DNA of 53,962 nt, counting the filler, from Jimgerdemannia flammicorona (taxonomy: Eukaryota): the NCBI GenBank assembly GCA_003990765.1. It is 2 parts of 2 records of this genome, joined end to end, with 100 filler letters (N's around TTAATTAATTAA, not from the genome) between each part and the next. Parts side by side here need not be neighbours in the genome. Positions count along the whole stretch, not along the records: positions 27,032 to 53,962 come from RBNJ01000677.1; 1 more part is not named here. One strand, 5' to 3'. The notes beneath the pieces were generated by a model, which was not told where the DNA came from, ran no database searches, and saw only the letters and a program-made list of their open reading frames with translations. Shown in pieces: positions 21,002 to 53,962 of the stretch. Numbering within the stretch: position 1 is the stretch's first letter; each line of letters opens with the position of its first letter. The position numbers were made by a program, and so were the translations under genes.

Positions 21002-21056
<55 letters not shown>

Positions 21057-27825: not shown

Positions 27826-27863
<38 letters not shown>

Positions 27864-27957: not shown

Positions 27958-28326
27958 TAGTGCTCTCAATAAAATGAATTAAAGGTTCAATTTGATTTAA
28001 TAAAGGCTAATTTAATTCAAAATTTAATTTGAACTCTATTTTTAGAAATATAATAACTTAACAAATATATGTCCAAATTTAACAATTCTTAGCTTATTAA
28101 AATCCCCTATATAAGATAAATCTAATAAGCTAATAATTGTTAAATTTGGATATATTTTAGTCAAGTTATTATATTTTTAAGAATAGAAGTTAACTCAGAC
28201 CCTTGAATCAATTCGAATTAAATTAATTTGAAATTTATTTGAATTAAAAAATTCCCAATATGATTCAATTTGAATGAGTCTCAATTTAATTCAATTTAAA
28301 TTGATTTGATTTATTTAGGAGTACTA
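27958..28326. mobile_element. hAT-type MITE (369 bp) with 8-bp TSD
   Basis: Termini TAGTGCTC..GAGTACTA; flanks CAGTAAAG (27950-27957) and TAGTAAAG (28327-28334); long internal inverted repeat ~28030-28100 / 28115-28192. Confidence 0.8.
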
Positions 28327-30288: not shown

Positions 30289-30290
30289 TT

Positions 30291-30308
30291 TGGGGGCTCA
30301 ACTGAGAA
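30291..30308 (+). promoter_or_regulatory. Primer binding site, tRNA-Pro type
   Basis: TGGGGGCTCAACTGAGAA just after the LTR resembles the canonical tRNA-Pro PBS TGGGGGCTCGTCCGGGA, mostly via transitions. Confidence 0.65.
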
Positions 30309-33300
30309 GATCTCAAAATCAAAGTGACTTTTCAGCTCACAAAAACCCACAGTCAAACTGGATATATTTGATACAACACTAATCTCTGCTACTACAGGAG
30401 AACTAGTTATCACCTGCATCTGGACAAGAAGAGAAGTAATCACATCAAGACTTGCCAACTACCCAGTATCAGAAGGATCCCAACCAGAGCCAGAAGGCAG
30501 TACAGCCTGAAATCCCCAACCAGATCAACTAGACAATATATGTGGCCCTGTTGGAGATTTTGAAGAACTTGCATAAGAACTAGAAGATCTTATTACACAA
30601 GCCTGAGATCTTACAGCCAGACACCCCATACCAGTCCCATCAATATCACCAATAGAACTCTTACCACAAGCCCTTGCAGAGTTGGAAGTAGCTCTTACAA
30701 GAATATCTAGGCTCATTCCACTTCATCTAAGGTCCAGAACACCATCCTCAGAATACCCAAGTACCTCCATCTCCAGAGATAGCTCAGAAAGTAAATCAGA
30801 ATCAGAACCTAAACCAGAACCAGAATCAGAAGAAAGTAATGATGAAATGGCCATCTCATTGCCAACCTTGCAGAATATCCAGAGGAAGATCCCAGAGAAT
30901 TTCTTGATGGAATTGAAGGAATTGCAGCCCTGAGAAATCTCTCAGATGAAAGAAAAATTGCCATCTACAAGGCTCAGCTCAGAGAACCAGTCAGAGGAAT
31001 TTTCCACTGAACAGCAGATGACTCAGATTCAGAACTAGTAAGACAGATATAAGCAGCAATGTCTTATGAGCTAGAATATGTGGCCATGGTCCACTGGCTC
31101 ATTGAAAAGTATGCAGGAAATGAAACCCACTATAAAGCTCAAGAATACATTATGGGGATGAAGATGAATCTTGGAGAATTGCCCAGAGCCTTCTTCACAA
31201 GAATCCAGAAGAGAATACATACTGCTGGGTTCAATGCCACCAACCAGGACATCATAGGTCCAATGACCTTCATGAATGGAATTCCTCTGAACATTGCCCA
31301 GCATGTCTGCACCCTAGGCATCAGAAGGTCTGAAGAGCAAGTAGATGCAGCCCAAGGATTCTTTGATGTCAGGCAAGGAACTATCTGGAGTAATCATGAC
31401 AAGAAAGAAGATAAAGAAGACATCCTGGTCAAAGCCCTACAAGGACTCCTTCAAGGAAAGATTCAAAGAAAGAAGGCCAGCCAAAGAAGGAAAAAAGGAC
31501 AGAAGCGAAATACAAGACCTCAGCTCCAAGTTGGACTGATTGGTTGGGCAGATTGAAAAACTCACCAAATATGAAAATCAGAGCTACCAAGACAACAGAG
31601 GATACCTGCCACAGAGGAGTCAGGGTTATCTACCAAGAGATAATAGGAGCTACCAGCAAGAGGAAAGAAGGTACACTGTCTGAGACAGACACTATGCTAC
31701 CAAATGTGACAATAAAAGAAGTGACCGAAGAGACTCAGAAACACCAAATCAAAGAAATGACACTCAGTACAAGAAGACTGAAGTCCATCCTGTTGAAGAT
31801 TTCGAGAAAGTAAGCAACAGTGAAGACTACAGTGACCTAGACTTGTACTCTACCAAGGTTACTGCTCGGAAAACAGTCTATCCAGTAGAGAAAAGGAAGA
31901 GACCTGTAGGAAGACCATCCAGGAATATCAGCAGAAAAATCACCCAAGAGGAAGATGAAGAACATGAAGAGGAACAAGTAGAAACACCTCCCTGGACTCC
32001 TTCACCTTTTGTTCCTGAGACAAATGAGCTACCACCAGAGGATGAGGCAATGAAATAAGAAGAATGGGAACCTGCTGCTTCAAAGCCCAAGAAGAAGTAC
32101 ATCCCAAAGACCATATTTAGAGGCATCTACAATGAAGCCTGGCAGAAGATTCAAGAGGTCAAGATGGAAGTCCCTCTCCTGCAGTTCCTGCAACTGATAC
32201 CAGCTGGAGTCCAAAACAAATTGCTGAGAACTACCAGGTCCAGTACTGGTTGAGTCCCAATCCCACAGCAAGAACCAGCTCCCATCTCTGTCCAAGCAGC
32301 TGAAAGATATGTCATCATCTACCTATATGGAGACATTGGAGGATAAAAGGCAAAAATCCTCATAAACAAAGGAGCAGCTGTCTGTGTCATTGCCAAATGG
32401 TTCCTAGACACCCTCCAATGGCCCATTGATGGACCATCCAACCTCAGCATCATAGTAGCAGATAGAGCCCGAAATCAATCCCTTGGAGAAGTATGAAACA
32501 TCACCATTTCCCTTGGACACATTCAGTTCTCTATCTCAAAAGCTGTTGTCACTGAAGCTGTCACCTATGACATAATTTTTAGCATCAACTAAATAAAGGA
32601 AATGAATGCAGTTGTTAATATCAGCCAACAAGTACTCAAGTTTGACTACTGAGGCAAGAAGTACAGAGTTAAGGTGATCAGCTACAAACAATCAATTAAG
32701 AAGAAGGTTACTATTCAGGAAGAATATGCCAGCAGCAAAGAGTCTACCACAGAGGAGGAAGAAGAATCTGAAGACAGAAATGATCCCAGACTCAATCCCT
32801 GAATTAACCTAGTGGATGACAGACCAGAAGACAATGTATGGGCCAAGAACACTGTCCCCATTACCATTGGAGCCATTGCAGGAGAGATCAAAGGATGCCC
32901 CACTTGCCTCAAGAGACACAAGTGTCCTGAGCACTCCTCCAAGATCATTGGGATAAGAAATTCGCCCAACACAGCCTGCCCTGAGTGCAGAAGGAAGAAG
33001 AAGAAATACAGACATATTCCAGAAATACCTGCAGCTGAAGCTGCAGAAGTATAAGCAATTTGGGGCCAAGAATCATCCAAGGAAGAAGAAGTTCCTCACC
33101 AAGAAGTCCCTGATGAAGAAGTTTTTGAACAAGAAGCACCTGAAGAAGAAGAGGTCCCCAAACTCATTCTCTGAAATGACTCTCACTGAACACCATCTGA
33201 AGACAATAACTCTTGGAATATAGATGAAGGACCCAGCACAATCTCCATTATTCCTAAGAAAGAAACCTACCAAAAAAGAGCTTTTTAGCTAGAAAGATAT

Positions 33301-33984
33301 CTATATCAAATTGTCTTCTATTCTCTCAGAGACTACTGCTATCAGTGCCATCTACTAGACCAGCAAGAAAGACAGAGACCCCAAAGACCAGAACCCTCAA
33401 CTACAGTTATACAGTCAACTATCTTTCAAGAAGATACTACAAAATTATAAAGCTGATATAGAGGACAAGGCTTCTTCACCCAAACAGAGATATACTCCTT
33501 ATCTACCCTTCCTCCAACTTATGATCAAGATGGATACCAATTCCTAAGACAAAAGAAGATCAACAACCAGGAATATCATTTTCAAGTAATGGGGTATTGT
33601 AACCATGGAAGACATTTAGACTGCTAAGATTGTAGACATCAGAAGATTTACTTCAGTCATGATGTTGCAATCCATATCTTGAAGAGAGGAGACAACAGAA
33701 ACTAGATCCAAAAAAGCCAGACCAGGAAGCCAGGAAGAAGAACCCTCAAGATCTATAATTTGGGAGAAGATATCCTAGCTCTCATCAGACATGCAACCCA
33801 ACAAGAATGAGTAGAAGATGCCACCAACTTCATGGAAACCCTAGACCCAACAGAAAGAGGAGGAATTAACTACCTCTGAGATCCCTCCACTGGAGCCAGA
33901 TGGCCACACCTCAACCTCAGAGCTTAGAGGCTCTTTGCTAGTGAAGCTTCAGCCTTAGATCAGCCCGAACTCAGCAAGGATATT

Positions 33985-34392
33985 GTCAAGTATTCCCTAC
34001 TGCATCCCAAGGCCAAACTCTCAACCAAAGCTCACCCAGAGGATATAGGATATGATCTTCATAGTTTGGAGGATGAATTCATCAAGCCCAGAAAAACATT
34101 CATAGTCAGAACAGAACTAGCCATGCAGCCACCCCAAGGAGCTTATATCCAACTAACCTCAAGGTCTGGACTTATCAGATAAGGAATAACTGTAGAAGGA
34201 GGAACCATTGACCCAGGATATACAGGCGAAATCAAGGTTATTCTACACAATAGTATCACAGAATGGCACTGAATCATTAGAGGACAGAAGATTGTCCAAG
34301 CAGTCTTCATGAAGGTCAAGACCTCACAACTATTAGAAGTCTCTGAACTGACTGAAGAAACAAGATAAGGCAAAGGATTTGAAAGTTCAGAC
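33985..34392 (+). pseudogene. dUTPase domain within Gypsy pol (3 in-frame stops)
   Basis: All five trimeric dUTPase motifs visible: IGYDL, TSRSGL, GGTIDPGYTGEI, GQKIVQ, R*GKGFESS; same frame as the upstream protease. Confidence 0.92.
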
Positions 34393-37300
34393 AAGGAGAA
34401 AGTACACCTCCATCAAGTCAACTAACTTTAGAGGAATTCTCCCCAGCAAGTATACTGCCAACCAGTCAAACTATACAAGAATCTCATCCTGGAGTCTGGA
34501 GAACAAACCACCTTTGAAAACTTTGCACCACCTGACCCCAGAAATCTCTTCTTTGAACCCAATAAAGATATCCCACACCTGGACATAGAAGGACACACCT
34601 TCTCAAACAAGATGAACCCAGTGCACTCCTGAGCAATCAACCAAAGTTGGGAAACCATCATTATGCCAATAGGATCTATTATAGGACACCTGGTGCCTTT
34701 TCTCTACCAAACTCATAGGAAAGTTGATGAACTAAACCTATCAGGAAACAGTAAAAGGTCTCAGAAGAAAGGAAAGGCCCCTCTACGACCTAGGAGACAG
34801 TGAAGCCTTCCACCAATATTAGAGGAGAATTGACACTCCAGCAACAGCAATAACTAGTAGAACTTCTCAACAAATATCAAGATGTCTTCACTACTGATTA
34901 TGGCAACCTGCCATACAACCCATCATATTACCACAGTATAAAAACAGAAAATATAAAACCCATCTGGCAGAAACCCTATAGAATATCCCATTACTTAAAA
35001 ACATTCAAAAAGGAGCACATTCATGAACTATAGAGTCATCCAACCCTCTACCAGCCCCTAGACCAGCCCTATACTTATCATACAAAGAAAGGAAGATAGA
35101 GGCTCTGTGTAGATTACAGGAAACTCAATTCAGTCACTGAAAAAGATGCCTATCCTTTGCCCAGAATTGATGACCTTTTGGATCAGTTACAAGATACCAG
35201 ATACTTCAGCAGTATGGACCTTTTCACAGGATTCCATGAGATCTCCATAGACCCCAAAGACATTCAAAAGACAGCCTTTCTTGCTCTAGGAAAACTGTTT
35301 GAATATCTCCAAATACCTTTTGGACTTTATAATGCATCTCCCACCTTTCAGAGGATGATGAATTCAGTCTATGCCCCCTTAATCCACTACTGCCTGATTG
35401 TATACATGGATGATTCCAACATCTATTCAGCAAATTTCGAAGAACACCTGCACTACCTAGAAGAATTCTTCAAGCTCACCTGTGAGAACCATCTGAGACT
35501 AAATGCAAAGAAATGCTACTTTGGGAAACAGAAACTTGAATTTCTTGGATTCATAGTTTTGAAAGAAGAAACTCATGCAGACCCCAAGAAAACCAAGAAG
35601 ATCAACAATTGGCCAGTACCCAAGACTCTGAAGGAAATATTATCATTCCTGATGCTAGTATCCTACTATAGAAAGTTTATCAAGGACTTTGCCCAAATTG
35701 CTACTCCAATCCGAGTCCTTCTCAAGAAAGAAGTACCATCCAAATAGACAGAATCACAAGAGAAAGCCTTCAAAGAACTCAAGAACTGCAGGACTACAGC
35801 ACCAATCCTTGTACACCCCAATCTACAGAAGCCATTCATCTTGTATACAGATGCTTTCAAAGATGGCCTTGGAGCAGTACTAGTCCAAGAAGAACCTGAT
35901 CAACAATATCATATGATAGCTTATGCAAGCAGAGCTACCAATCAGCAGCAGATGAATTACGGCAGCACCAAATTGAAGTGCCTTGCAGTCATATGGGTGG
36001 TCACTCTGTTCAAGCATTACCTCATCAGAAAAAGGTTCACCCTGATTACAGATCATGCAGCCCTCAAATGGCTATTCAACTGTAAGGAACCTACCAGTAT
36101 TCTGGCCTGCTGGATCCTTATCCTTCAAGATTACAAAATCACCATCATTCACAAAGCAGGGAAAGCCCATAACAATGTTGATGTACTTTCCTGCCAGTCC
36201 CAATGAACCAGAAGAAGGGTGTTCCAAGGAACTATACCCTAAAGGAAGCTCCTCAGACCATCAAGGCACAAGAAGATCTCATCCAAAAAGAACATCAGAT
36301 AGCCCACCAAGGACAGGCAAATATAGAAGAGAAGCTGTGAACAACACACCAACATTGGCCCAACCTCAGAACACAAGTCTGGGACATACTCAAGAAATGT
36401 GACACCTGCCAGAAGTACCAAGGAAGGAAGAATTACCAAGCACCACTGCAACCAATTGTACCACCAGATGATATCTTTCAGAGATGGAGAGTAGATATAA
36501 TTGGACCCCTATCAGTCACACTAAGAAGGAAAAAATACATCCTTATATTTGTAAAACATCTGACAAAGTGGCCCAAGGCTTTCCCAATGGAGATCACAGA
36601 TGTCTTAACCATTGTAGGCCTCCTTCATGGACTCACACTCAGATATGGACCCCCAGACGAACTTATCTCTGACTGAGGCACAGAATTCATCAACAATATA
36701 ATTACAAGTTATGCCTGAATTCACAAGATCCACCTCAAATGGACTACATCATACTACCCTCAGACCAATGGTATGACAGAAAGAATGAACCAGACCATCA
36801 AGAAAGAAATTGCCTAAGTCAATTCTACCAACTGGGACCTCTGCTTACCTGAGATCCTATGGGAAATTCGGAACACCCCTGCTACCTCCACCAAACAAAA
36901 GCCATTTGAAATGATGTTTACCAAGAGGACCAGAACTACTGACCATAAGAACCTTGGAGATCTCCTCAAAAAGGCAGAACAGTTATGTAATTAGACCCAA
37001 GTCCAGATTGTCAAAGCCCAGGAAAGACAAAAGAAGTACTATGACCAGAAACAGAAGGACTAGAAAATCAATATTGGAGATCAAGTATTGGTTTGGAGAA
37101 GCATGATTGAAACAACTTTGTCACCAAATTGGAACTCAAATAGGAAGGATCTTATCTTGTACACAACATCAGAGGAACCAGCATCTATTTAAGAAGCATA
37201 GATAGACAAATCCTGAGGACACCAGTATATATCAATTGCCTTAAGATATACCTTTCCCCACATCATGAATCAAAGAGTTGACAACTGCCTCCAGACCCTT

Positions 37301-37811
37301 GTCCTCAGCTCATTTTAATCACTGCTAGCTCCCCTACCCCAATTTTGAGAAATCAATAGGACTACCCTCCAGAAATTTCAGATTCATCAAGAGAATCTTG
37401 TCCTGGCCAGATAATTGCTACAGGTCCACCAACTTCAGGCCCACTATGCAATTGGAGAACAATTGCAGAACCTCCCAGCCCCAGAACAAACATACATCAG
37501 AAGCACTACAGGACTATCAAGAAGGGATATTACTGCTGCAGACAGGCTCTATACTATTTATAAATGTAACCCTACAGCCTTATTATAAACACAATTCTCC
37601 TAGTGAGATGTATGAAGAATGAACCTGACCACCTAACTAAGCATTATTAATGCTGTCAAAATCCTATTCCCAGAAGAAGAAGAAGAACCCTTAGAATGGA
37701 GTAATCATGGTACAGATAATGAAGTTGATGGAATAGGTATTGATGCAAAAGATGCTTACCTACACTGAGATAATGACTGAAGAACAGTCTGGGACAGACT
37801 ATCCTTCAGTA

Positions 37812-39149
37812 GGAGAAACCAAAACGTGCAATCTGAATTATAACTTAGCCAGATAACATGAACACATAGCATAGTAACTAGCAACCATTGCAGTGGAAAA
37901 CTATATAAATAGCCAGACTACTAGATATGGTATATCTGTGCAAAACCTGCACACCTGTATAAGACTTATACATCTGTGCAAGACCTGTACACCCATGCAA
38001 GACTTACATACTTGCTATAGATAGCAATCTATAATTAGCAACATAGTAACCAGATAGCAACCACAACTGTATAAAATACCCCAGAGACAAGAGTGAATAA
38101 ACCTCAGTCTGAATTAAATCTAAAGCAAAAGTCAAGTCTGCCTACCACACTTTAAGAGGAACTCTATAGCCACTGCTAGGAGATTGTGAGCTTTGCCTTT
38201 TCCCACTTCAGTCCACTTTCCAATACAAAGAATAAGTCTGTTTTTGATTTACTTGCTAGATAAGCCTGAAGAATTGCCAGCCAAAGTTCAAGGAAGAACT
38301 TTGCCACCATTTGAGTAATCCATCACTTAAGGAATAAGCCACCATTTCCAAGTTATCTGTATTCCCAGAAAAGCCTAAGAGAAAGCCACCTTGCATAAGC
38401 CAGTTTCTGATGCAACTTTGTAGTAAATCTGTTCATGCAAATAAAGCCAGTCTTTGACAAAATGTTGCCAAGAGACCCTTTCTCAAAAGCTGCCCATTAT
38501 ATTTCTGAGTTGAAGCTACCAATTCAGAAAGAATCTATGCCATCTGAGTTATTTTCCAGAAGCCCACCGATTTAAGAAGAATCCATGCCACCTGAATAGT
38601 ATTCTCAGAGAACCTGCTGATTCAGGAAGAATCTACAACATCTGAGTTATTAGTTTGTTCCCAGTGAGTCTGAGTTATTGAGTTATCTGCCACTAGTATT
38701 ATTCTCAGTAAGCTACCATTTTAGAGAAGCTGCAGCCAAATCAAGTTATTTGCCAAATAGCATACTTTTGGAGATTGTCATACTACACAAGATCATCATG
38801 CAGAAATCACATAAAGAAACCACCAAATTGCCAGACCATCATATATAAGGAACCCATTGTGCTACATAAGATCATCACCCAGAAATTGCATAAGGAACCC
38901 ACCATGCCACACAGAGATTGTCATGCTATACACGAAATTCTACCAATTCCCAGTTGACCCAAGTACATCCAGAGAACAGTCCTGATTAGGAAACTGCTAT
39001 ATAATTGACCGCTATATCCAGAACTTGACTATTATACCACTAAACACTAAGAACATTTTGTTGCTTTTAATAAAGTAACTGAGGACTCAAGCCAAACTAC
39101 ATCAACCCCCAATCTTGTAATTTGCCTCTATTGAGCTGGGCACATTACA
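37812..39149 (+). repeat. 3' LTR of the Gypsy element
   Basis: Homologous to 28988-30288 from AAACCAAAAC to GCACATTACA; many transitions and some indels. Confidence 0.88.
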
Positions 39150-39685
39150 ATAGATATAATGTGTAATATTGTTAAATACTTTAATAAACCTCTTATAATA
39201 AGTAATAAGTCTCATATAGACTTGAGCTTCAGTAACTGTGGTGGGTCTTAGATAGGGAGTCACTGCTTAAATCTTAATAGAGTTTGTGTGGGTTTCAGTC
39301 TAATTGAAACTATGTCCAAGGTAGAAAATTTCAATTTCTACAAACTTATACTTCTTAGACTTGATGAATATATTATACTCTCTCAATATCTATAAGATTT
39401 AGTAAATATAGTTTACATATTCTTTAACTGTCTTGCTGAAGATAATTATATAATCTATATAGACTATCATATATTTTCCTATATTATCTCAAAAGATCTT
39501 ATTTATTATTCTCTGTAAACTTGCTAAGGTATTAGATATTTTAAATAGCATTTAAAGCTAGACATAGATTCCATCTGAGATAATGAAAGCTGACTTTTAC
39601 TAGCTTCTTTGGTGAGACTAATTTGATAGAATTCTGAGTATAAATATAAGATAGTGTAATATTATACTTCATCTTCTAGTATTCC
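39150..39685 (-). pseudogene. RT core of a second, older Gypsy (continuation of 49911-53700)
   Basis: Minus strand reads YYTILYLYSEFYQI..SAF..MLFKISNTLASLQRIINKIF..IVYIDYIIIFSKT..KSKKYKF..YLGH..TYYKRFIK, a decayed Gypsy RT. Confidence 0.75.
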
Positions 39686-42600
39686 AGTTGGAAAAAGCAT
39701 TTTTATTGAGTTTGCATAGGATATATATTTCATGTATTACTGATGGATAACATAAAACTCATGAAATCACAAATTATGTATTGATATATTAAGTTGCTAT
39801 CCCAACGCTTCCACTCAATGAGATATGTATATATAAAAAAGAACATAAAATGTACTCAAAAAAAATAAAAATAAAAATAGAATACAAATTAGAATAGAGG
39901 TAAACTAGAGCAAACTAAATATGACCAACAGGGTGCTATCTAGATAACTGCAGAAGGTCAAAATATCTCTGCTTTTAAGTATAAAATTAGGTAAAGAATA
40001 TAGTAGAATACCAGTAATACAGAAATTTTGCTGGTCAAAAAGTGTTTTGAAATATCTGAAATATTTACAGAAATATAATACAATATTATCCATACAATCC
40101 ACTTATAGACAAGAGATGTAACCAATATATATGTGGATGTAGGTGTAGTATGAGAGGCTTTTAACAGCCTGAAAAGTATTCTATAATCAACTAGAAAGAT
40201 CCATTCCTTTAGTGCACTGCTCAAACTTTAGCTTTGGAAGGGCTTTAGTAAGTGAATCAGCAGTCATATACTCTATGAGAATGTATTCCAGATATATAGT
40301 ACTGTTTTCTATGCATTCATAAATGAAATAATACTATATAGTAATATGTTTTGTTCTGCTGTAATATATTGGATTCTTGGCAAGCATTATCATTGATTGA
40401 TTATCTTGCTTGATTAGCATAGAGTTCTATTTCTAAGTGAAGCTGCGCTCTTTTAATAGCTCATAAAACCAAATGGTTTCCTTTATTACCAATGATAATA
40501 CCTAGTACTCTGCCTATATTGAGAATATTGCCATAGAACTCTGCTTGCATGTTTGCTATAAAATAATAGATCTTTTATTACTAATATAGTAGAGATACCC
40601 AGTTGTAGATTAATGCTCATCTAAGTCTCTACCCCAATTAGTATCATAAGCACCAGATAGCCAGATGCCATTACTCTTATTATTGCTCCTGCTTAATCTA
40701 ATATTACTATTCAATATAAGTATATAGTATACTGATATCTTTAAGTATCAGAAATCCTCTTAATAGTGCTCTAGTGTGAATTATCATAGTAGGAGAAGTA
40801 TTGCACCACCTTGTTAATAGTATAGGATATATTGGGTCTTATTCCTAATATGAGATACATGAGAGAACTGACCACTTATTAATAGGGGATATTATTGGTG
40901 CTGTTCTTATTGTCATCATTCTCAGATATAGTGTTTGGCTTTCTTAACTTTATAGAAGTGTCTATAGGAGTACTGATGTGCTTGCAATTACTTATATTGA
41001 TGTATTCAAGAATGGCTTTGGTATATGTCACTTGCAAGAGATATATAGTGCATATATTCCTATTATATGTAATTGATATCCCCAAAAGGAAGAATGTATC
41101 ACCCATATTAGTCATCTTGAATTCTTGGTATTAAGTCTCCTTTACTCCATTAAGCTTATTCTTGCTGACTATAATGACAATATCATTAATCCATATACTG
41201 ATAAATACTATGTCATTATCATAATACTGGACATATATATAATTGTCTGCTTTACAATGCTTGAATCCATTATTAAGGAGATGTTTATTGATCATTTTAT
41301 TCTATAAGCATACTGCTTACTTAATGACATATAATCCTTTGTGTAGTTTGCATATGAGCTTGCTGTTCTGATTGTTGTAAAGTTCATATCCTTATAGTTA
41401 ATGAATATATAGTTCAGTATTTACATCATCATTCAGAAAGGCTGTCTTAATATATATCTATTTAGTGAATTTCTAAGTCATATAGTGCACCAATCACAAG
41501 AAGTATTCTAAAAAAAGTAAGTTTAAATACTGGTAAGAAGATTTCATCATAATCTATACTATAATCTTACAAGTAACTCTTAGCAATAAAATGAGCTTAA
41601 TACTACTCTATGTCATCATTAGTATTGCACTTTATCCTATATACCCATCTTGATCTAATTACTTTACAGTTTGGTGAAAGAGATATTAGATCCCATATAC
41701 TATTCTTGATAAGTAAATTATATTTCTCATCTATTACTTGTTTCCTTTTCTTGCCATCAGGATTGATTATGACTTTATTATATATCTTAGCTCACTGGAA
41801 GATGTCACAATATATGTGTATTTGTATACTTCGTATAGCTCATATGGTCTTTATATTGCTGTCAAGAGTCTGTTGGTATATCTCAATAATTGTCTAGTTC
41901 TAAATAAGTTTCACAGAAAATGTTGGAGCACTTTTGCATTTATTTACCCTTTATAGAGGATTCCTCGTTATTGGAGGATTCACCATCATCATCTTTGATC
42001 TCCATTATTCTTGGCTCAGGTATTTCTGGCTCAGGTATATATAGTGATTGATAATAATTTTGATTAACTACTAGAGAGATGGATGATAATTGTACTGATT
42101 GCTACATTTATACTGGCTGGAATATAAATGTAGGGGTTTCAACTAGTACTTCCATATAGGGTTCCAAGCTATTTTCTTTTTCTCTGAAGAATATATCATG
42201 CAAGATGACTATATACTGCTTGTGTAGATTCTATAGCTAGTATACCTTGCTAGAATACCCAAGAAACATGTGCTTGCTTGTCTTGGGTTCGAATTTGTCC
42301 TGGATAGGATTGCTTTTATTAAGGATATATATGTCAGATCCAAATATACATAGATGGGATATATCCAGCTTTATTCCAATCTATAATTCTTTAGGAGTGA
42401 GATTATCATCCTTATACTTGTTGTTGTTGCCAGCTTTCTTGCTTAGTGATTGAGATATGCATCTATTGCAGATATATACTACTGTGTTGATGGCTTCAGC
42501 CCAATAGAAATATCCTAATCCAGTAGTATTAATTATCATATACACCATTTCTATGACCATATAGTTAAATCTCTCAGCTACACCATTCTGCTAAGATGTA

Positions 42601-43229
42601 TAGGGAGCTGTCATTTGATGAGTTATATCATATTTTATCAGGAACTGCTTGAACATATAATGGACATATTTGTATCTATTATCTAATCATATAGTACATA
42701 TTCTATGTCCAGTTTTGTTCTTGGTGATTACTTTGAATTCTTTGAATTTATCCAAGGCTTGACTCTTTGCAAATAGAAGATATATATATGTATACTTTAC
42801 ACATATAATCATTAATGAATATGAGAAAATATCTCTTGCCAGAATATGATGCATAAGGTCTAGGATCCTAGATATGCGCTTTAATCATTCTTTGAATGGT
42901 CACTGAGATGTTTTGTTTATCACACAATCTTTACAGAAACTATTATACAGATGTACTACCAGTAATCCTCTGACAGATTCCCTCCTTATCATCCATTCAA
43001 GGCTCATCTTGCCAATATGTCCTAAGCATTAATGCCACATGTTGGATATATCAGGTATGGTTGTTATATATGCAGAGGCTTTTATGCTTCTTGAATTGAT
43101 TATGTAAAGATTGCTACATTTTGAGGCTATCATTAATCTCTTGTATCATGCGAATTATATACTATTATGTCTTTTGAATATATATATATCACTTTGTTGT
43201 TATGGGTCATCATTTTGCCTATAGAGAAG

Positions 43230-46200
43230 TATTGAAATATGTAGGTTACAACTCGATATATGGTGGCACAGCCTTCCTTGACTACGTCATCATGTAAACG
43301 TCACTAATTGTGACACATAAAAGCATGTAAGAATTAGCAATAAACAGTTTGCTTCTCTCTCCAAAGTCTATATTCCACCACAGGTTATGAGCCCTGCTTA
43401 GCGGCTATAATACACCCTCTAACACACTATGCTATACATGAATACAAGCAGTGCTGCAGCACGCCAAGCCCCAGCGGTAACACAGGCTCGGATACTGGCA
43501 TGGATATGGCAGCCCCCATTACGATGATGACGACAACAACGATGGTGGCGCCTACAACTATAAACACGGTTTAAAGGATGATTCCTGTCTTTGATGGTAT
43601 GGATTACACCATATGGGCGTATCATATGAAGAATCTTCTTGAAGAATGCAGTTTGGGGGACTATTGAAAGCCACAGGTACAGATTACGGGATACGACGCT
43701 ATTAACAATCATAAGGTGCTAAGGGAGATTATGTTTACCCTTTCGAATGCGCAAATGAAGCTCGTAATCAATGCTATGATGGCGAATGAAGCCTGGGACA
43801 TCTTGCGGAATCACCACCAACAAGCATCCGCTTCGAACAGATTCCACTTGAAGGCGCAATTATTCAATCTTCGAATGAAGTCAACGGAGAACATCCAGGA
43901 ATATGCCAACCGAGTTGGCAAGCTGCGAATCAAGTGAATTCCCTTACAACTATGCCAGGGGACACCATTAGGGATGAAGACAAGGTCCTGACCCTTACAC
44001 GAGGCATACAACATTTTCGTTGCAGCTATGAGAGAGTCCAGCAAATTATCGGATTACAAGCACATCATCATGAGCCTATTAAACGAGGAAACAAGGCTGA
44101 ATGCCAAGGAAGACAATGATGGCAAGGAAAAAGCCTTTTACAGCAGAGCACATAGACGAGGCAATGGCAAAGGCAAGTCGAATAAAGGCCGAGACAAGAG
44201 CCAGCAATACGACAGTCAGAAATTCACTGGGAAATGCTTCTATTGCGATAAGCTCAGACATTGTGAAAAGGACTGCAACCGCAAGAAAAAGGAGAAAGGC
44301 AGACAACAGCAGGCAAATACAGTGGACACCAATAATGACAGCGGCGGCAATGGGGGAGGTCTATTCTTTGCAGAAGCAGTAACCTACCCATATGCAGAAG
44401 CGGGAGATAATTTAAAAAACAATGCCAGTTGCAAATGCGGCGGCAATTCGACATCTACAAATCCTGATAAAGGAAACACTCTTCAGACAGCGAAAAATGG
44501 TGACGTCAACGTCGGCGCCAGTGCAAATGTAAGCTATACGCTGAACAGCACTTATGCATGCAGCGAAGAGGTCTGGCTCATGGATTCGGGCATAATACAG
44601 CATATGATGGCTCACCAGGAGTGGTTGTCTATGTACAAGGAGTTTGAGCATCCCATACCTATCAAGCTAGGTGACAATAACGTCATTTATGCTTAAGGGA
44701 AAGGCAACATAGGCATACATCTACATGGAAACATTGATAAACCTTCAGGCACCTTCGTGGATGTACTATACGCTCTAGATATAGGCAAGAACCTCTTCTC
44801 AATAGGCCGGATGATGGCTCGCGGGGACAGAGGAGTAAATATATGCCCAAACGGTGTAACGGTAATCAATCTGAAGAACAATAAGGAGTTAATGTATGCA
44901 TCGAAAAAGGGGAATCTATATGCAATCAATGGCATGCCGAGTGGCACTACATCTGCATATTCTGCAACTACGACAGGAGAGGATTTCTGGCATATAATGC
45001 ATGAACGCTTAGGACATATCAGTAAAACAAGTCTCGAACAGATAGTAAGGAGCAAGTCTGTGTATAGTTTACCAGACTATATGCCACCAGATTTCTTTTG
45101 CAATGGATGCGCAGCAAACAAGGCTTCCTGGCAACCTTTTCAGGAACAAACGAAGCAAGCAACTGGCATTCTCGATTTGATTCATACAGATATTTGTGGC
45201 CCCATGCGAATGGTATCACACTCTGGGAAGAAGTATTTTATTACATTCATTGATGATTATATATGCAAAGTCCACGTATATCTCATTGCGGGGAAAAACG
45301 AGGCATTCAACAAATTCCAGGAATTCAAGGCAGCCATGGAGAATGAGATAGGACGTAGAATATGAACCCTAAACTCAGATAATGGCAAAGAATAAGTCAA
45401 CAAAGGTTTCAGACACTTCTTGAAGAAGAACAGTATATAGCACTCTACAACAGCCTCTTATGCACCTCAACAAAATGGCATGGCAGAACGATTCAATTGA
45501 ACAGTAGTGGAAATGGCTAGAACGATGATAAATATGGCCGGCTAACCGAAGTCCTTTTGGGTGGAAGTGGTGAATATGGCGGCATATATTCGAAATCATT
45601 GTTTCTCTCGAGCTCTAAGCAAGGATCCCAGCAAGCAATCCAGGAATGACAGCAATCTTACCCCTGAGGAATTATAGAATGGATCCAAGCCTGACATTTC
45701 ACACTTACGCATGTTTAGAAGCAAGGCATACATTCTGGACACAAGTTTGAACCTAAGGCAGATAAGCATATATTCCTTGGATACAATGGAGCGGGATACA
45801 GACTTTGGAATCCACAGAAACGACATATGATTATTTCACGCAATATACAGTTCAAGGAGACTAAGCAGGAAATTTATGTGGAAATTCCTATCTCGAATCC
45901 GACAGTGAATCTGACAGTGAATTCGATAGTACAGCCAGTGATATCTACGCCAACTGCAAAGGCTAGCAGAACAACATCTACACCCGGAATGACACTGTAG
46001 ACTACGCCAAAGACATCCTTGGGACCTATGCCAGTGAAAGTGCAACCCATTCAAATGGCAATGAAGTTGCAAGAACCAAGGATAATGGAAATTATGGATG
46101 AGGATGACAAAGAGGATACCTCTCCGAAGGGCAAACAAAAGCACAAATCCAGAGTTCTAGATACAGATTAGGAGGTTATTGGGACCTGCCTAAGACATCC

Positions 46201-48297
46201 CGTCATGGCAACAATAGTGGACATCACTTGAACTATGCTGATTCTTACGAATGCACATATATTGCAATGACCAGTGAACCAGAGAACTACGACGAAGCCA
46301 TTCACTCAAATGATAAGAAGGAGTGGAGAAGGGCTATGGACGAGGAGTACAGTTTACTCATCGAAAACAACACTTGGGATCTAGTAAGCCTTCTGGCAGA
46401 GCGACAAGCTGTAGGATCGAAGTGGGTCTACAAGATCAAGTGTAAGGCTAACAGTAATGTAGAATGATATAAGGCTCGATTTGTAGCAAAGGAGTACTCG
46501 CAAGGCTACGGCATAGACTATGATGAGACATTTTCCCCAGTATTTAAGTTGACTTCGCTTAGAATACTTCTTGCGATTGGAGCCAAGTACGACTATGAAA
46601 TACACCAAATGGACATAAAGACAGCATTCTTGAATGGTGATGTAGATACGGAGTTATACGTATGACAACTACAAGGATACGAACTATACGACAATGACGG
46701 AAACGAACTTGTATGTAAATTATACAAAGGGCTCTATGGAATTAAGCAAGCGGCAAGGTTGTGGAATTGAAAGATCGATGGATATCTTCTAGACAACGGA
46801 TTCAAGCATTGTGAAGCCGATTCATGTATATATACCCAACATACATCCTCAGGAACGGTATACCTGGGAATTTGGGTTGACGATATTATTTTAGTCAGAA
46901 CGGCAAGTGAAATCAATGATGTAAAGGCTACACTACACCAGGAATTCAAAATGACAGACTTAGGCGAAGCATCCTATCTCTTTGGAATATCGATTACACA
47001 TAACAGGCGCAAGTGTGCTATACACCTAACGCAAGCCACATACATTCGAAATATTCTCAAGCGATTCAGGATGAGTGAATGCAAACCAGTCAGGATACCT
47101 ATAGAAACATTCGTGAAACTAAAGAAGTCTAACACTATGCCCGATGGAAATGACATCCCCTATCGACAAGCTGTGGGATCCCTCATATATCTTATACAAG
47201 GGACGAGACCTGATATCTCTTTTGCGGTAAACAAAGTGGCGCAGTATTCTTCATGCTATGACAATAGCCATTGGACAGCAATCAAGTGAATTTTCAGGTA
47301 CATCAAAGGAACTGCAGACTATACGCTCAGTTTGGGTGGTGATAATGGGCAAAGCGGGAGTACTATATGCCTATTTGGTTCTTGTGATGCCGATTGGGCC
47401 GGCGACTTAGATGACAGAAGGTCTATGACTGGATACATCTTTAAAGTAAACAACGGAGCCATTTCGTGGCAAACGCATAAGCAATCTTCAGTTGCAATAT
47501 CCTCTATGCAAGCAGAATATCAAGCGTTGTCAATGGCAACAAAGGAGGCTATCTGGCTTTGAGAACTGTTAAAGGAGCTGGGATACAAGCAATGACACTC
47601 TATGCTTCTCCAGCAAGATAACCAATCAATGATTGCTTTGGCAAAGAATCCTATACACAACACTAGAATGAAACACATCGATATACAGCATCATTTTATA
47701 TGGGAATGCGTGGAAAACGACACTATATACCTGGAATACACTCCAACGGAGTGTATGATAGCAGATTCATTAATGAAAGCCCTCCCAAAGACAAGATTTG
47801 ATCTATGTGTAAAGGGAATGGGAGTTATGGCAGCGAAAACTATACGCCAGCAATAAAAACAGCAACAATAGTGAGCTATATGGAAGTATTTCGGCGAATC
47901 AATTTCGAAATCTATTTCATATTCAATGCATTTCTTTTCCCTATCACTACATTGCAGATTTCTACCAACATTGCTCATCTACGAATGTTCACATCTCTAC
48001 TTTTCAACCTATTTTTTGAGCTTTAAGCAGGCAATTCAAATGTTTTTCGGTTTCTAGATAGTGGTCTGAATATTGCAGCGAGATTTGCAGTGGTTATAGC
48101 TTAGTATTGCAGTTTGGGAATTTGCATATCTCGTTGAGTGGGAGTATTGAAATATATAGGTTACAACTCGATATATAGTGGCGCAGCCTTCCTTGACTAC
48201 GTCATCATGTAAATGTCACTAATTGCGATGCATAAAAGCGCGTAAGAATTAGCAATAAACAGTTTGCTTCTCTCTCCAAAGTCCACATTCCACAACA
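43230..48297 (+). mobile_element. Younger complete Ty1/Copia retrotransposon (5068 bp), inactivated by nonsense mutations
   Basis: 153-bp LTRs 43230-43382 and 48145-48297; perfect 5-bp TSD AGAAG; zinc knuckle CFYCDKLRHCEKDC; PR WLMDSG; IN HERLGH..CNGC..LIHTDICGP; RT HQMDIKTAFLNG, WVDD; RH CDADWAGD..KHIDIQHHF; PPT GAGTGGGAG. Confidence 0.97.
43383..43397 (+). promoter_or_regulatory. Half-tRNA(iMet) primer binding site (Ty5/copia, hemivirus type)
   Basis: GGTTATGAGCCCTGC directly after the 5' LTR is complementary to the anticodon arm of initiator tRNA-Met (GCAGGGCTCATAACC). Confidence 0.85.
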
Positions 48298-50394
48298 AGA
48301 AGAGGCTCTTTTCTATCTTTGGAGCATATAGTATATCTACAAGAGTAGCAGTGGGCTTGATAATATTTCTATAGAGATATATACTGACATTTCTCTTTTT
48401 TTGAGTATAGATAACATTATTATCTCCCAACTTGATGAATATAAGATATTCAAATGGTTGATATATAGAGAACCATTCTCTGTATAGTTTTATATATTGT
48501 ATAGTTTCAGAATCCATATTAATCAGATATCATTATTATTAGCTATATTTGTTGCATATTTAGTAGATGTATAGTTGACAGCTTTTCTATCTACATTACT
48601 GGCAGTGTTTATGTCATCACTACTTTTTATCAGCCCAAAAGTATTTTACTGGCTGTCATTTTTAGATGATGAGTTGATAGATTTTATGGTCAAACTACTT
48701 ATAGATATTGATCTTGTATTGACAGAGCTAGCAGAACTAGTGCTGGTAGTAGGTTTGGTGGGATTTTTTGATCCAAAATTATCATCCTTGTCAGGCTTCA
48801 TAGATGTAGAGGGACTGGTAACTTGCACAAAAAATTGATTATTGCTTTCATCAGTTTTAATGGTATTTACATTGTCATATTTCTCTTGATAGTTTCTGCT
48901 ATCTCTATATTGCCAATGCTGGCTTTTTCTGCACTTATTTTCATTTTCCCAGCAATAGTATTAGTGTTTTCTATATCCATACTTGCTGCAGTATTCACAG
49001 TAGCCATTTTACTTGGTTGATTGGCTAGATTGGTTATTATATTGATTTTGAGTTTAGGGTCATTAGTCTTATTATTAATACCTCATTTGGCACTGCATCT
49101 ATAGAACTCATAGAATACCCTTTTGTCTTATCACTATCATTTCCTCAGTACATTCCCTCATTCATAAGGCTCATTATTATATTGGCATAGTCTGTGAGAG
49201 TACCACTCTTGTGCATAGCTGTGATGACAATATTATATATATCTGGAAGTCCCCTTGTGAGTGCTATAACCTTATCTTCATTACTAATACAATCTGTAGA
49301 TATGCTGAGAGAATTCACTTGATTCACCAGATTGTCAATATAACTAGCATATTCATAGATGCTCTCCTTGAGCTTCATTTGAAGATTAAATAGCTAAGAT
49401 TTCAGGTGGAATCTATTTGATGCAGATGCTTATATATAATGATTATATAGGGCTTTTCATGTCTCATTAGCCATATCTGTATGCATTATGAGCTTTATTT
49501 GTAAGTTTGACAATATAAATGCAATCTCATATAGTGCTCAGCAATTGTTTGTAGGTCATGGTCTTGAATATATACTTGTGGCTTTATATACTCTATTAAA
49601 CCACATTTGTTAAGGAGATTCATTATATAGAATATTCATATGGTATAATCTTTTCCATCAAAGATCGGAATTGACCTCTTGGCTATATTTATACTTATAA
49701 TAGAGACTGCTCCCATTACTAGGTTGATCATCTGCTATTTCTAATATATATTATATAGTATATATTTATGAGGGGTATATATTTATTTATTATTATTTTT
49801 TTGCTATATCCACTTAGTGCTAGTAGAGCTCATAACCTTTATTGGAAGAGGGGCATTTTTATTGAGTTTGTATAAAATGTGTATTTTATATATTACTGAT
49901 GAATGATATTATTCTAATAGTTCCTAGGATATTACTAATGAGAGGTAGTAATTTGTGATATTTCTTAGCAATCTCATTGAGCTTTCTATAGTTTGTATAG
50001 AGTATTGAGGCAAATTCTTTCAGCTTGCTTTCTTTTTTCAGAGCCAGTATAATTGCTGAGAACTATGGATTTATAGCCTTCTAAATAATGCTAGTTTCTT
50101 ATATCTGCTTGATCTCTTCTCTAAACAATTCATAATATATTATTGAAATTAGTTTTACCATTTGATAGATTGACTCCATATCTCCTATGTCTATATTATA
50201 ATAGCAGTATGGTATCTTTCCTTTAGTATTCTTAAAATCAGTGATAAGGATATTTTCAAATTTATACAATATCTACTTAGGTTCCTTCTTGAATGAGAAT
50301 TTATTTCTAATAGTATAGCTATGCTTATCTGTGATTTTCTCCTTTTTGTAGTCTAGTTTGGTAATTTTAGAACTAATAAAAGCTCCACTTTTCA

Positions 50395-50800
50395 TATATC
50401 TGAATCCTTTTCTTTCTCTTTCTATTTCCTTCAGCTTCTTTACTTCTATGATCTTAGATTATAGTACTGAAAGATTAGTATTTATATAAGTTAGTCCTTC
50501 TCTTAACTACAAATAGAATTGTAAAGTTGTGATTCCTGATAATGAGCAGGATTTCTCTAATATAACTAAAATTGATAACTTCTTCTTTAATCAAAATTTC
50601 ATTTTGGCTAGACTACTCTTTATTTTGAGTATTTTGTATGATTCTTGAGAATAATCATCTTTAGGTTAGTTGCAAGTAGAGTAGTTGTCTATAGTTCAAG
50701 AACTATCTCTTCAACTCTAGTAATATCTATTCTAGCTGCATTTTCTGACTTATATTCTAACAGGACTATATCAGGATAAATCCACTAAATCATAATCTTG
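50395..50800 (-). pseudogene. Degenerate dUTPase domain of the older Gypsy
   Basis: YPDIVLLEYKSENAARIDI, ATNLKMIILKNH, KSSLAK, EEVINFSYIREI, EVKKLKEIERERKGFRY read as G->A-decayed versions of motifs AGxD, RSS, GGVIDxGYxGEI, RGxxGFG. Confidence 0.7.
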
Positions 50801-51650
50801 ATTTCTTCTTCATCATCACTATCTTCTAGGAGGACTGATAATTCATCCTCCTAATTTTCCTTTTCTTACTACTTCTGTCTTCTTTTCATACTTACCTATA
50901 TATTATATATATATATATAGTATATCTGAATTCTATGAGGACAAACTTCTTATAGAGTATATTCTTTAGTAATCTTCTTATATCAATCTTCTTTGCTGAT
51001 CCCTTTGACCTTCTTTATCTTTTTTTAAGTAGTTATTATATAGACCTCTTATTGATCACAATCTTCTTTCTCTATCTAAAACTACTTCTTTGTTGATATT
51101 GATTAAAATTCACATCTTTTGTCCTCAGTAGACAAACTATATCTTCTGGACATTTATATTAATTATAGCCTTAGTCTTGTGAAGCCACTGATTGTTGATG
51201 AGAATATTATAGTTGGTGGTATTTGTAATAATCATATTTACTGAAATAGTTACTCCTCCAAACTTGATAGAGATATCTCAGATCTTTTCCAAAGAAGTAG
51301 CTCTTTATCTTAGAGTAAATATATTCTTTTTTCTTATAGCTGGTAGCTTAGATGAGTAGTCTTGGTTCCTTCATAATATGTAACCTCTGTTGTTTTATAA
51401 GTTGTTCCAATTTTTATATATGGTGAGGTTTTCAATTTGTCTACAAATGGTCCAACTTGGAGTTGAGGTTCTGAATTTCATTTCTCTCTTTCTTTCACTC
51501 CTTAACTGGTTTTTCTTCTTCTAGTTTTTCATATTCTCAAAAAAAATTCTTATGGGTTTTAACTAAGATATGTATCTTCCTTATCATCTTTCTTATTATA
51601 ATTGGTGATTCCTTATTCAATATAAAAAATATCTTAAGCTTATCTACCAT

Positions 51651-52905
51651 ATTTATTTATTTATTTTTTTAACAGACACTATATCCTGTAAATTTTTATT
51701 GAAAGAAAATCTAGACTATATAGGCCAAAACTCTCCCCCACCTTCTCTCAAGCATTATACCCCCAATAAACCTAGGCTAGCTATTGTCCAGCAGCTTAAC
51801 CATACTAGGCAATGCAGGTCATAGGTAGCCTATACCTCATTCTATATATTGTACTCTCCTTATTACTAGGGGGAAAGTGACTATATACTAATAACTAAAG
51901 GTACATGCCTAAAAACCAATTATATATACAAGACTATGTCTGAGCTGAATATAATAGTTCCTACTACTCTAAATGGAGTGATAGGAAAAGAAAAACCCTA
52001 CAAAAAATATAGAGTAATAAGTAAGACCTGGTTCTCTCTAATGAGATAAGTAGAGAACTTATATATAAGATAGGAGGAAATCTCCAATATTCTACTAATC
52101 AAGTCTACAGGTCTCAATTATGTTGCCACATCAGCTCTCAGTTCCAGTTAAGTGCAGCTAAGATATCTGACTCAGGTAGTCTTGGGCCCCCTAACAACTC
52201 TCAAGTAATACTACAGTATATTAAGAGTAGCCAAGAATGATACTTACTACCTAATCACTCTATACTTATCTGAAGATTCTATCAATATAATATCTGTACT
52301 AGTCCTGATAACCATCACTAGTCTGATATACTACTGGTCTACTATAATTACCCTTTCTTCTATCTGTGATAGTTATCTTCTCTTCCATTCTGATATTACT
52401 TAAAAAACAATCACCTATATCAGAACTATACTTATCAGAAAGCTTATCAAAGCTCAGAGGGCTCACTACAGATACTGAGAACCTGCTGGAATCTTTACTG
52501 GTACTTGATGCCCAAGGTTGGCCAACTCTCTATATAGCTTATAATATACTATAATAATATCTTATAGTAATAATAAAAGGAAAAAGATACTGTAACAAAA
52601 TAAATATACCTCAGACATAGTCAGAGATATCAGAAACTATGAAAAAGTAGAGAAAACATCAATCTGATACTGATAAAGGGGTAACTTATCACTATTGTCT
52701 CTCTTCCACTATTCTATAATAGGTACAGTAAACTAATCTAAGGTAGCAAGAGTATAAGTTATAGAAAGGGAACTTGGAAGATTGTCTATCAAACCTTGTG
52801 ACTGATAAGATAGTAGTAAAAGGAGCTATTAAACTATATCTACTTATTATTCAGCCCTTCTAATACCTAGAATATAGATATACTGTACAATATTTGGAAG
52901 AATTC
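51651..52905 (-). mobile_element. Poly(A)-tailed insertion (probable LINE 3' fragment) within gag of the older Gypsy
   Basis: T-rich tail at 51652-51670 with AATAAA on the minus strand at ~51695-51700; gag similarity stops at ~51650 and resumes at ~52907; no recognisable domain. Confidence 0.4.
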
Positions 52906-53734
52906 TGATAGGTAGTATTGAACTTAGCTCTAGTATTCTTTTCTAGATTCTGATAAAGAATTCTTTAGATAATTCTCTGAGATTCATTCTTATCTCTATA
53001 ATGGATTCTTAGGCCTTATAGGGGGTTTTATTTTCTACATATTTTTTGATAAATCAGTGGCTCATGGCTTCATATTCCTCTTTCCAAGATACTGTTGTCT
53101 GAATGACTCTTCTAAGTTCTACATATATATTATTTACTACTTAGTTGAAAGTTCCCTTGCCTGGTTCTCTGAGTTAGACTTTAAAGATAGCAATTTTTCT
53201 CTGAGTAGTGAGATTTTTTAAAGCTATAATTTCTTCAATTCTATTTTGAAATTCTCTTGGGTCTTCTTCTAAATATTCAGCTAAAATTAGTATTGAGGTA
53301 TTTATTTTATTATCATTGTCTTCTAGTTCTGATTTCAGTTCTAATTTACTTTCTGAGTTATTGCTAGAGGTTGAAATACTTAAGTATTCTGAAGATGGAG
53401 TTATTGGTCTTGAGTGAGGTGCAGTAGGTCTAGATATCCTTGAAGGGGCTATTTTTAGTCCTTCTGGTACTATAGTTACTAGGTCTGATAGTGGTTCAAT
53501 AGAAGGAGTCTAGTAGAGCTCTCAAGTAAAACCAGGCTTATATAATGAGGTTTTTTAATTCTTATATAAGCTAATTAAAGTTTTTAACAGAATTATCTAT
53601 GTTGTCTGATTGATCTGATTAGGTCAGGTCTCCTGGTAGTAAGTCTGCTAATACTGGTTAAGGATTCTATACTATATTGGTCTCTTTTTAGAATCTTTCT
53701 GATACTGAGTAATTGACAAGCCTTAAGTAATTAC

Positions 53735-53741
53735 TTTTTTT

Positions 53742-53823
<82 letters not shown>
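53735..53823. repeat. Long poly(T) tract
   Basis: ~88 T with one C; other long homopolymers at 2893-2938, 10024-10072 and both window ends. Confidence 0.9.
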
Positions 53824-53826
<3 letters not shown>

Positions 53827-53931
53827 GTCACTTTGTCTGTCCTTTATTTTCATTCTATTCTATAATTACTACGATCCCACCCCCTTTCCACCTTCTTTCT
53901 TTTGTCGTCGTTAATTATGTGCTGTTTTGTT

Positions 53932-53962
<31 letters not shown>

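Follow-up and report, generated by a model that had tools for sequence, protein, structure and literature searches.

Transposons in a window of 53,962 nucleotides from the genome of Jimgerdemannia flammicorona (GenBank assembly GCA_003990765.1) have been mutated directionally from C to T (G to A), on both strands and after their insertion, in the context order CpG > CpA > CpC >> CpT, whereas the unique DNA of the same window has been spared. Judged from the sequence, this pattern is probably best explained by methylation-coupled deamination of transposon chromatin by a system of the DIM-2/DNMT1 class; true repeat-induced point mutation (RIP) is not shown. The element under study is a young Ty1/copia retrotransposon at 43230-48297, which is nested in an older copia of opposite orientation. 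The window, i.e. the whole stretch of DNA that was analysed, joins two records whose parts need not be genomic neighbours, positions 27,032-53,962 corresponding to RBNJ01000677.1. A preliminary description of the young element had proposed that a methylation-coupled or RIP-like process acts on repeats here, and this proposal is supported, mostly by evidence beyond the pair of long terminal repeats (LTRs) of that element.

The young element is an LTR retrotransposon of the Ty1/copia type, with an LTR pair, a 5-bp target site duplication (TSD) and an integrase upstream of the RVT_2 reverse transcriptase (RT) domain. Its features, all on the plus strand, are the following.

43225-43229, plus strand: left TSD, AGAAG, with an identical 5-mer at 48298-48302
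43230-43382, plus strand: 5' LTR of 153 bp, TATTG...CCACA
43383-43400, plus strand: stretch resembling a primer binding site (PBS), GGTTATGAGCCC..., directly after the 5' LTR (sequence reading)
43575-45722, plus strand: frame for gag, a protease-like barrel and integrase, with 10 in-frame stops (Pfam, X-read-through translation)
43704-44111, plus strand: Retrotran_gag_2 (Pfam)
44574-44825, plus strand: Pol_BBD (Pfam)
44913-45122, plus strand: gag_pre-integrs (Pfam)
45177-45467, plus strand: rve (Pfam)
45734-45955, plus strand: C-terminal SH3-like segment of the integrase in another frame (domain 45740-45868, Pfam PF25597)
46108-47856, plus strand: RT-RNase H frame (RVT_2 at 46366-47106, then an RNase H-like part; Pfam)
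48136-48144, plus strand: polypurine tract GAGTGGGAG preceding the 3' LTR (sequence reading)
48145-48297, plus strand: 3' LTR of 153 bp
48298-48302, plus strand: right TSD, AGAAG

A repeat search of 42000-49500 returned one direct repeat pair (43228-43382 and 48143-48297, 155 nt, 92% identity), which is 2 nt longer than the LTRs because the polypurine tract shares its final AG with the left flank. The 5-bp TSD, short LTRs, PBS-like stretch, polypurine tract and gag-protease-integrase-RT-RNase H order are those of Ty1/copia elements, whereas the LTRs depart from the usual form by starting with TA rather than TG in both copies, and the closest Pol homologue, among 4,768 hits, reaches 55% identity. 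Both LTRs indeed start with TATTG instead of the usual TGTTG (43230-43234 and 48145-48149), the 3' LTR ending in CAACA; this start is either native to the family or the outcome of TpG>TpA having occurred in parallel in the two LTRs. The copy is dead, carrying 16 in-frame stops and two frameshifts, one near 45725 and the other between 45955 and 46108 (frames from tblastn).

Realignment of the two LTRs reproduces exactly the counts of the preliminary description. Twelve of the 153 positions differ, by 11 transitions and one transversion (C/A at 43379/48294). Seven transitions are of CpG type (43268, 43299, 43311, the CA/TG doublet at 43314-43315 and the AT/GC doublet at 43325-43326 within GCGCG), and four exchange CpA/TpG with TpA (43241, 43262, 43369, 43371). 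If the C>T direction is taken, the derived T/A allele stands in the 5' LTR at seven of the 11 transition differences and in the 3' LTR at four. Among CpG-class LTR sites bearing C or G, 7/17 differ, and all four non-CpG transitions fall in the class of a pyrimidine followed by A (YpA), with P = 0.028 if any site is mutable and 0.043 if only C/G sites are. The divergence K of the pair is 0.078 at all sites and 0.043 without CpG-class sites, which bears out the earlier claim that LTR dating overestimates age. Such dating is inflated in the J. flammicorona genome, and even K = 0.043 is still raised at CpA and CpC.

The stops of the young copia had been described as mostly of the CGA->TGA or CAA->TAA type. 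TGA does make up 11 of the 16 in-frame stops, next to three TAA and two TAG, and all six internal stops of the RT-RNase H frame (46465, 46663, 46768, 47287, 47560, 47593). Arginine is the majority homologue residue at four TGA stops (45498, 46465, 47287, 47560); in 21 aligned homologues, drawn from 120 listed copia homologues as those of highest identity plus three named ones, it is aligned at 46465, 47287 and 47560 in 16/21, 19/21 and 16/21 sequences, respectively. The CAA->TAA part is not supported: the three TAA stops stand at columns whose majority residues are I/E, Y and L, none of them at a glutamine column. Moreover, of the five transitions that can create a stop under the genetic code, four have a CpG or CpA context, and the described pattern therefore says little.

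Repeat-specific CpG decay, as claimed beforehand, is evident from the observed/expected ratio (o/e) of CpG, which is 0.94-1.12 in unique DNA and 0.00-0.70 in transposons. The control is the genic left 22.5 kb of the window, which holds an SMC-hinge gene (Pfam) and the following host gene.

924-7800, minus strand: Trs85/TRAPPC8 (TRAPP), in 13 exon blocks; unique-DNA control

The large exon of Trs85 matches a Jimgerdemannia protein at 98% identity, ahead of Umbelopsis as next best at 36%, so that the host is indeed a mucoromycete (Endogonales, Mucoromycota), the condition under which a non-CpG component had been called notable. CpG o/e is 1.07 over the genic domain (1-22500), 1.12 in the Trs85 exons, 0.94 in its introns (1,396 bp, TpA o/e 0.70) and 1.11 in the intergenic DNA at 8600-10900; introns and intergenic DNA thus keep 0.94-1.11 at a GC content of 0.37-0.38. 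Among the transposons, the ratio falls from 0.70 in the young copia to 0.06 in the old one (8 CpG in 5,233 bp), 0.04 in the interior of a neighbouring gypsy element and 0.00 in a relic at 50000-53700. Along the window, scanned by 500 bp, it drops sharply at ~23.0 kb from ~0.8-1.3 to 0.04-0.37; the CpG-poor domain starts ahead of the N runs at 26932-27031. The young copia forms a CpG island in this domain, with 9-21 CpG per 500 bp in surroundings of 0-2 per 500 bp. Within the window, CpG decay is real, post-insertional and limited to repeats.

A non-CpG component is also real in the window, reached by three independent routes, namely the old copia, an asymmetry test and the gypsy LTR pair. The CpA component put forward in the preliminary description thus stands for the window, although the young copia alone is insufficient to establish it. 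The old copia comprises the following parts.

39697-43229, minus strand: 3' part, AT-rich (GC ~0.30), interrupted by the young copia (tblastn with 120 copia homologues)
40192-41788, minus strand: RT-RNase H (tblastn; Pfam RVT_2)
41969-43139, minus strand: integrase (tblastn)
48298-49904, minus strand: 5' part
49308-49671, minus strand: gag-like stretch, 66% identical to the young gag at 43581-43944
39697-39748 and 49853-49904, minus strand: LTR remnants, a 52-nt direct repeat

With no Pol homologue above 55% identity, changes in both copias were polarised through conserved amino-acid columns rather than same-family nucleotide copies; no look-alike nucleotide stretch for same-family polarisation turned up in the sequence index searched. 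Codon columns were retained when at least 20 of the 120 listed homologues were aligned with at least 80% agreement, these polarising homologues being only 35-55% identical and the counts covering one window. In the young copia (255 columns), mutations are found at CpG 11/28, CpA 6/75, CpC 2/68 and CpT 0/44, with T>C 0/93, A>G 2/125 and 11 transversions; CpG stands apart from the non-CpG cytosines (8/187 mutated, p = 1e-6). In the old copia (234 columns, omitting 13 multi-step and 4 ambiguous codons), the counts rise to CpG 11/13, CpA 36/80, CpC 12/50 and CpT 2/41, with T>C 0/66, A>G 2/95 and 12 transversions. Unambiguous single-step changes there are C>T/G>A in 61 of 75 cases, the others being two A>G and the 12 transversions. 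Changes at CpA are split equally between C>T (18) and G>A (18), and they exceed both those at CpT (Fisher p = 2.5e-6, or 3.9e-5 with ambiguous L>F exchanges booked as CpT) and the reverse transitions (T>C plus A>G, 2/161, p = 3e-18). In codons whose neighbour base is fixed (Q, H, W, M, C), CpA is also hit more often than CpC (15/33 vs 6/33, p = 0.03). Fixed-neighbour CpT was rejected as a negative control on account of conservative L/F, R/K and S/N exchanges, which bring it to 13/29 in the young copia at a 60% threshold. No trinucleotide or CHG-like preference is apparent from CAG 15/30, CAA 31/64 and CAT 31/67.

The second route compares a GC-richer copy with an AT-rich relic at identically flanked sites, over four pooled alignments, and needs no outgroup. 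It was used instead of naive RIPCAL-like counting, rejected as biased since CA/TG doublets of ancestral CpG become two CpA events (giving 6 CA and 5 CG in the copia LTRs) and since the neighbour base is read from the mutated copy. Sites with C in the richer copy and T in the relic, relative to the reverse, number 29:0 at YpG, 125:22 at YpA (p = 1e-18), 35:15 at YpC (p = 0.007) and 51:54 at YpT (p = 0.85). Both strands behave alike, with a top/bottom split of 36/31.

The third route relies on a second, independent LTR pair, that of a Ty3/gypsy element lying, with related remnants, in the same block.

~28990-39149, plus strand: Ty3/gypsy element (RVT_1, RT_RNaseH)
28990 to ~30288, plus strand: left LTR, followed by PBS-like TGGGGGCTCAAC
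34869-37121, plus strand: RT, RNase H and integrase
~37810-39149, plus strand: right LTR
39122-39614, minus strand: gypsy-like RT fragment between the gypsy 3' LTR and the old copia, 21/40 conserved codons changed
50000-53700, minus strand: AT-rich relic related to the gypsy gag region, 0 CpG in 3.7 kb (52905-53454 matching 30686-31247, and 51380-51520 matching 31466-31605)

The gypsy LTRs are a true pair, with a common start and end and the PBS-like stretch after the left copy. Their core is a tandem array of units of ~40-60 nt ending in ...TCTGCACCATCTGAGTTAT-like motifs, in unequal copy number between the two LTRs, and the comparison was therefore restricted to 309 reliably aligned positions. 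An overall identity of 73.7% was discarded as an artefact of this core, the reliable positions giving 85.8%. They hold 40 transitions and 4 transversions, distributed as YpG 8/9, YpA 18/49, YpC 7/24 and YpT 3/39 (YpA vs YpT, p = 0.002). The RT fragment at 39122-39614 agrees with this trend, its sites being few (CpA 5/8, CpC 3/7, CpT 1/6, reverse transitions 0/27). Since LTR-LTR differences are found in two elements, copia and gypsy, the mutations arose after insertion. The gypsy interior (30300-37800) has 14 CpG in 7.5 kb, an RT-RNase H frame with a single stop, and 2 CpG opportunities among 134 conserved codon columns. The gypsy family seems to be CpG-free by descent, whereas the copia family was CpG-rich at insertion, and the two families may have had very different histories under host methylation.

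Expressed as -ln(1-p), the relative rates at CG:CA:CC:CT in the young copia are 1 : 0.17 : 0.06 : 0; for the old copia, whose CpG estimate is near saturation, they are 1 : 0.32 : 0.15 : 0.03. Cumulatively, ~40% of the CpG sites but few further cytosines are gone from the young copia, and ~95% of CpG and ~45% of CpA cytosines from the old one. A single set of relative rates acting over different times would suffice for both copias. It would also explain the shift in stop spectrum from TGA in the young copia (11/16) to TAA or TAG in the old one (25/28), where the 28 in-alignment stops are 14 TAG, 11 TAA and three TGA. The process looks clock-like rather than acute.

Neurospora-type RIP targets cytosines in the order CpA >> CpT > CpG > CpC. 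The window shares with the RIP of Neurospora crassa and other Pezizomycotina the confinement of C:G-to-T:A transitions to repeats (61/75 in the old copia, unique DNA being unaffected), the preference of CpA over CpC and the sparing of genes, and its oldest relics come near the index thresholds. It differs in that CpA is not the dominant target, CpG being struck first and CpT spared, and in the distribution of the changes. The preliminary description had suggested a search for clustered, strand-coordinated mutations. No strand-coordinated C>T or G>A runs were found in nine permutation tests (three pairs by three context sets, P = 0.06-0.95), a signal that could have been lost over many rounds of mutation. 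The copia LTRs of 153 bp and the interior share one mutation rate, both at non-CpG (4/92 vs 8/187, p = 1) and at CpG sites (7/34 vs 11/28, p = 0.16). The 1.3-kb gypsy LTRs may somewhat exceed their interior at non-CpG sites (28/224 vs 7/116, p = 0.09), which gives a homology effect a little room. The RIP indices TpA/ApT and (CpA+TpG)/(ApC+GpT) are 0.74 and 1.48 in the young copia and 0.91 and 1.51 in the old copia, both failing the classical criteria, and borderline in the relics at 50000-53700 (1.16 and 1.00) and 27300-29000 (1.13 and 0.80). The process escapes such standard indices, which are blunted by the continued supply of CpA/TpG from decaying CpG.

A methylation-driven loss of CpG to TpG in transposons is known from Basidiomycota and other 5-methylcytosine (5mC)-bearing fungi (summarised in PMC13297926). 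The window resembles it in CpG depletion, TpG/CpA excess (CA/TG o/e of 1.18-1.25 in both copias and 1.20 in gypsy) and limitation to transposons, and differs from it by a large additional CpA and CpC component, which is not expected from a maintenance methylase acting on CpG only.

The context order CG > CA > CC >> CT, on both strands and restricted to transposons with genes spared, is that of a Dim2-type process as it appears in Zymoseptoria tritici in the available excerpts of Moeller et al. (PMC8016269). There, Dim2-dependent 5mC in transposons amounts to ~43-61% at CG, ~10-22% at CA, ~3-8% at CC and almost none at CT. The resulting methylated-fraction ratios (1 : 0.23-0.36 : 0.07-0.13 : 0) approximately match the mutation-rate ratios found here (1 : 0.17-0.32 : 0.06-0.15 : 0-0.03), and Dim2 is reported to promote C>T at CA during mitosis (PMC8016269). 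The present case differs in that its host is a mucoromycete rather than an ascomycete and that CpG is the fastest class. As for candidate enzymes, the part of Navarro-Mendoza et al. available to us (PMC9963178) describes RID as exclusive to Pezizomycotina and DIM-2-like homologues as occurring in Endogonales and Glomeromycota. Three J. flammicorona proteins that combine BAH and C5-methyltransferase domains, each a reciprocal best hit to N. crassa DIM-2, appear in part 234 of Dataset S1 of that study. In the excerpts available, a kingdom-wide screen by Badet and Croll (PMC12543289) found RIP-like signatures unique to Ascomycota, its k-mer screen being limited to scaffolds >50 kb, and its S1 Table gives J. 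flammicorona as 231 Mb with 73% repeats; a review (PMC13297926) describes early-diverging fungi, in the passages seen, as dominated by 6-methyladenine (6mA) rather than 5mC. The pattern did not turn up in a literature search on Endogonales or Jimgerdemannia that addressed RIP and mutation linked to methylation.

The young copia inserted into an older copia within a transposon block of at least 31 kb (span counted across the N runs). All transposon DNA of this block undergoes strongly directional C-to-T (G-to-A) mutation on both strands, at relative per-site rates of about CpG 1, CpA 0.2-0.3, CpC 0.06-0.15 and CpT 0-0.03, the neighbouring unique DNA escaping it. Most likely, a DIM-2/DNMT1-class enzyme preferring CG, then CA, then CC, and avoiding CT, would methylate the cytosines of transposon chromatin, and deamination of 5mC, spontaneous or enzyme-promoted, would follow. 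The spectrum, the restriction to transposons, the action after insertion and the strand symmetry are observed; the intermediacy of 5mC, the nature of the enzyme and the chronic character of the process are presumed.

Several points weigh against this explanation. In the excerpts of the Z. tritici study, Dim2-linked mutations occur at CA and not at CG (PMC8016269), whereas CpG is the fastest class here, so that a CpG maintenance activity or a different repair must be added. The non-CpG component cannot be demonstrated from the young copia alone, where CpA against CpC plus CpT (6/75 vs 2/112) gives p = 0.06, or 0.35 with three ambiguous L>F exchanges booked as CpT, and where the fixed-neighbour classes have no excess (CpA 2/40, CpC 2/43, CpT 3/14). 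CpT is partly undercounted through such ambiguous L>F exchanges, three in the young and two in the old copia. Two of the four YpA-class LTR sites lie only 2 bp apart and are perhaps not independent, and the alignments of the asymmetry test are only 66-70% identical and join different families. Finally, two runs of 44 N each (26932-26975 and 26988-27031) separate the gene-bearing part from most of the transposon block.

Some of these points would also suit ordinary neutral decay, which would reduce what is real to the universal CpG effect and ascribe the CpA signal of the LTR pair to chance. The LTR pair alone has P of 0.03-0.04 with two of its four sites close together, the fixed-neighbour classes of the young copia agree, and the genetic code by itself places four of five transition routes to stop in CpG or CpA context. 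This explanation is nevertheless improbable and already contradicted within the window, by the old copia (CpA 36/80 vs CpT 2/41 and reverse transitions 2/161), by the asymmetry of YpA (125:22) relative to YpT (51:54), by the gypsy LTR pair (YpA 18/49 vs YpT 3/39) and by introns and intergenic DNA that keep a CpG o/e of 0.94-1.11 and a GC content of 0.37-0.38. Cytidine deaminases yield C-to-T/G-to-A hypermutation of retroelements, and editing of the cDNA by an APOBEC-like enzyme during reverse transcription would have the present type of change as its typical product. However, changes made before integration are copied into both LTRs and so are unable to create LTR-LTR differences, CpG is the main target, and the strands are hit symmetrically (at CpA of the old copia, C>T and G>A number 18 each, and the asymmetry test gives 36/31). 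Strand symmetry and LTR differences already contradict such editing, which is hardly credible.

A true RIP-like defence, i.e. an enzymatic C-to-T mutagenesis triggered by homology or duplication and possibly premeiotic, is a more serious competitor, though an unlikely one. Neurospora has a RID-independent RIP pathway through DIM-2, and a defence of this kind could likewise run via a DIM-2-like enzyme. It would account for the extreme directionality of the changes (CpA 36/80 against 2/161 reverse transitions in the old copia), for the preference of CpA over CpC and CpT in polarised counts, asymmetry test and gypsy LTR pair, for the borderline indices of the oldest relics, which reach the classical thresholds, and for the perhaps higher mutation of the gypsy LTRs relative to their interior. 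Against it stand the CpG-first and CpT-sparing order, the copia LTRs mutated at interior rate, the missing strand-coordinated runs, and a slow accumulation, age-graded in appearance, in which the young copia retains a CpG o/e of 0.70 and one relative rate set accommodates the loads of both copias despite their different ages. In addition, no RID is expected in the lineage, RID being reported absent outside Pezizomycotina in the part of PMC9963178 available, and ~73% repeats in 231 Mb (S1 Table of PMC12543289) is not what efficient RIP leaves. Still less probable, and speculative, is a repeat-directed mutagenic defence of Endogonales via DIM-2-like methyltransferases, an ancestral, RID-independent RIP predating Dikarya in which the enzyme itself would drive C-to-T at CG, CA and CC of recognised repeats.

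Other observations concern the remainder of the window. The block at 23000-26900, which adjoins the genes and marks the onset of the CpG-depleted domain, combines a CpG o/e of 0.20 with a GC content as high as 0.475 and a G-over-C skew of +0.25 to +0.46; its open frames (e.g. 23671-24480 and 26022-26696) have no Pfam match and a single unnamed homologue at 53% identity. At 27163-27257, an 11-nt unit GATTCGAATCC forms a tandem array of eight copies that retains its CpGs, with a local CpG o/e of 1.6 within otherwise nearly CpG-less DNA of GC 0.19-0.26. A (CCG)x20 microsatellite (20993-21054) lies inside a 636-codon open frame (20263-22173, GC 0.55) for which no significant Pfam match was found. 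Long homopolymer-like A/T runs (2893-2938, 10024-10091, 10769-10800, 53736-53826, 53925-53962) occur in genic and transposon parts alike and dominate the self-BLAST output of the window.

The window thus presents a clear transposon-only C-to-T process in a mucoromycete, with a large non-CpG component and a Dim2-type context order. If genome-wide, this process would place methylation-linked repeat mutagenesis before the Dikarya split and would provide a testable function for the DIM-2-like genes of Endogonales and Glomeromycota. It would also bear on how transposons are handled in a genome of 231-240 Mb composed of 73-77% repeats.

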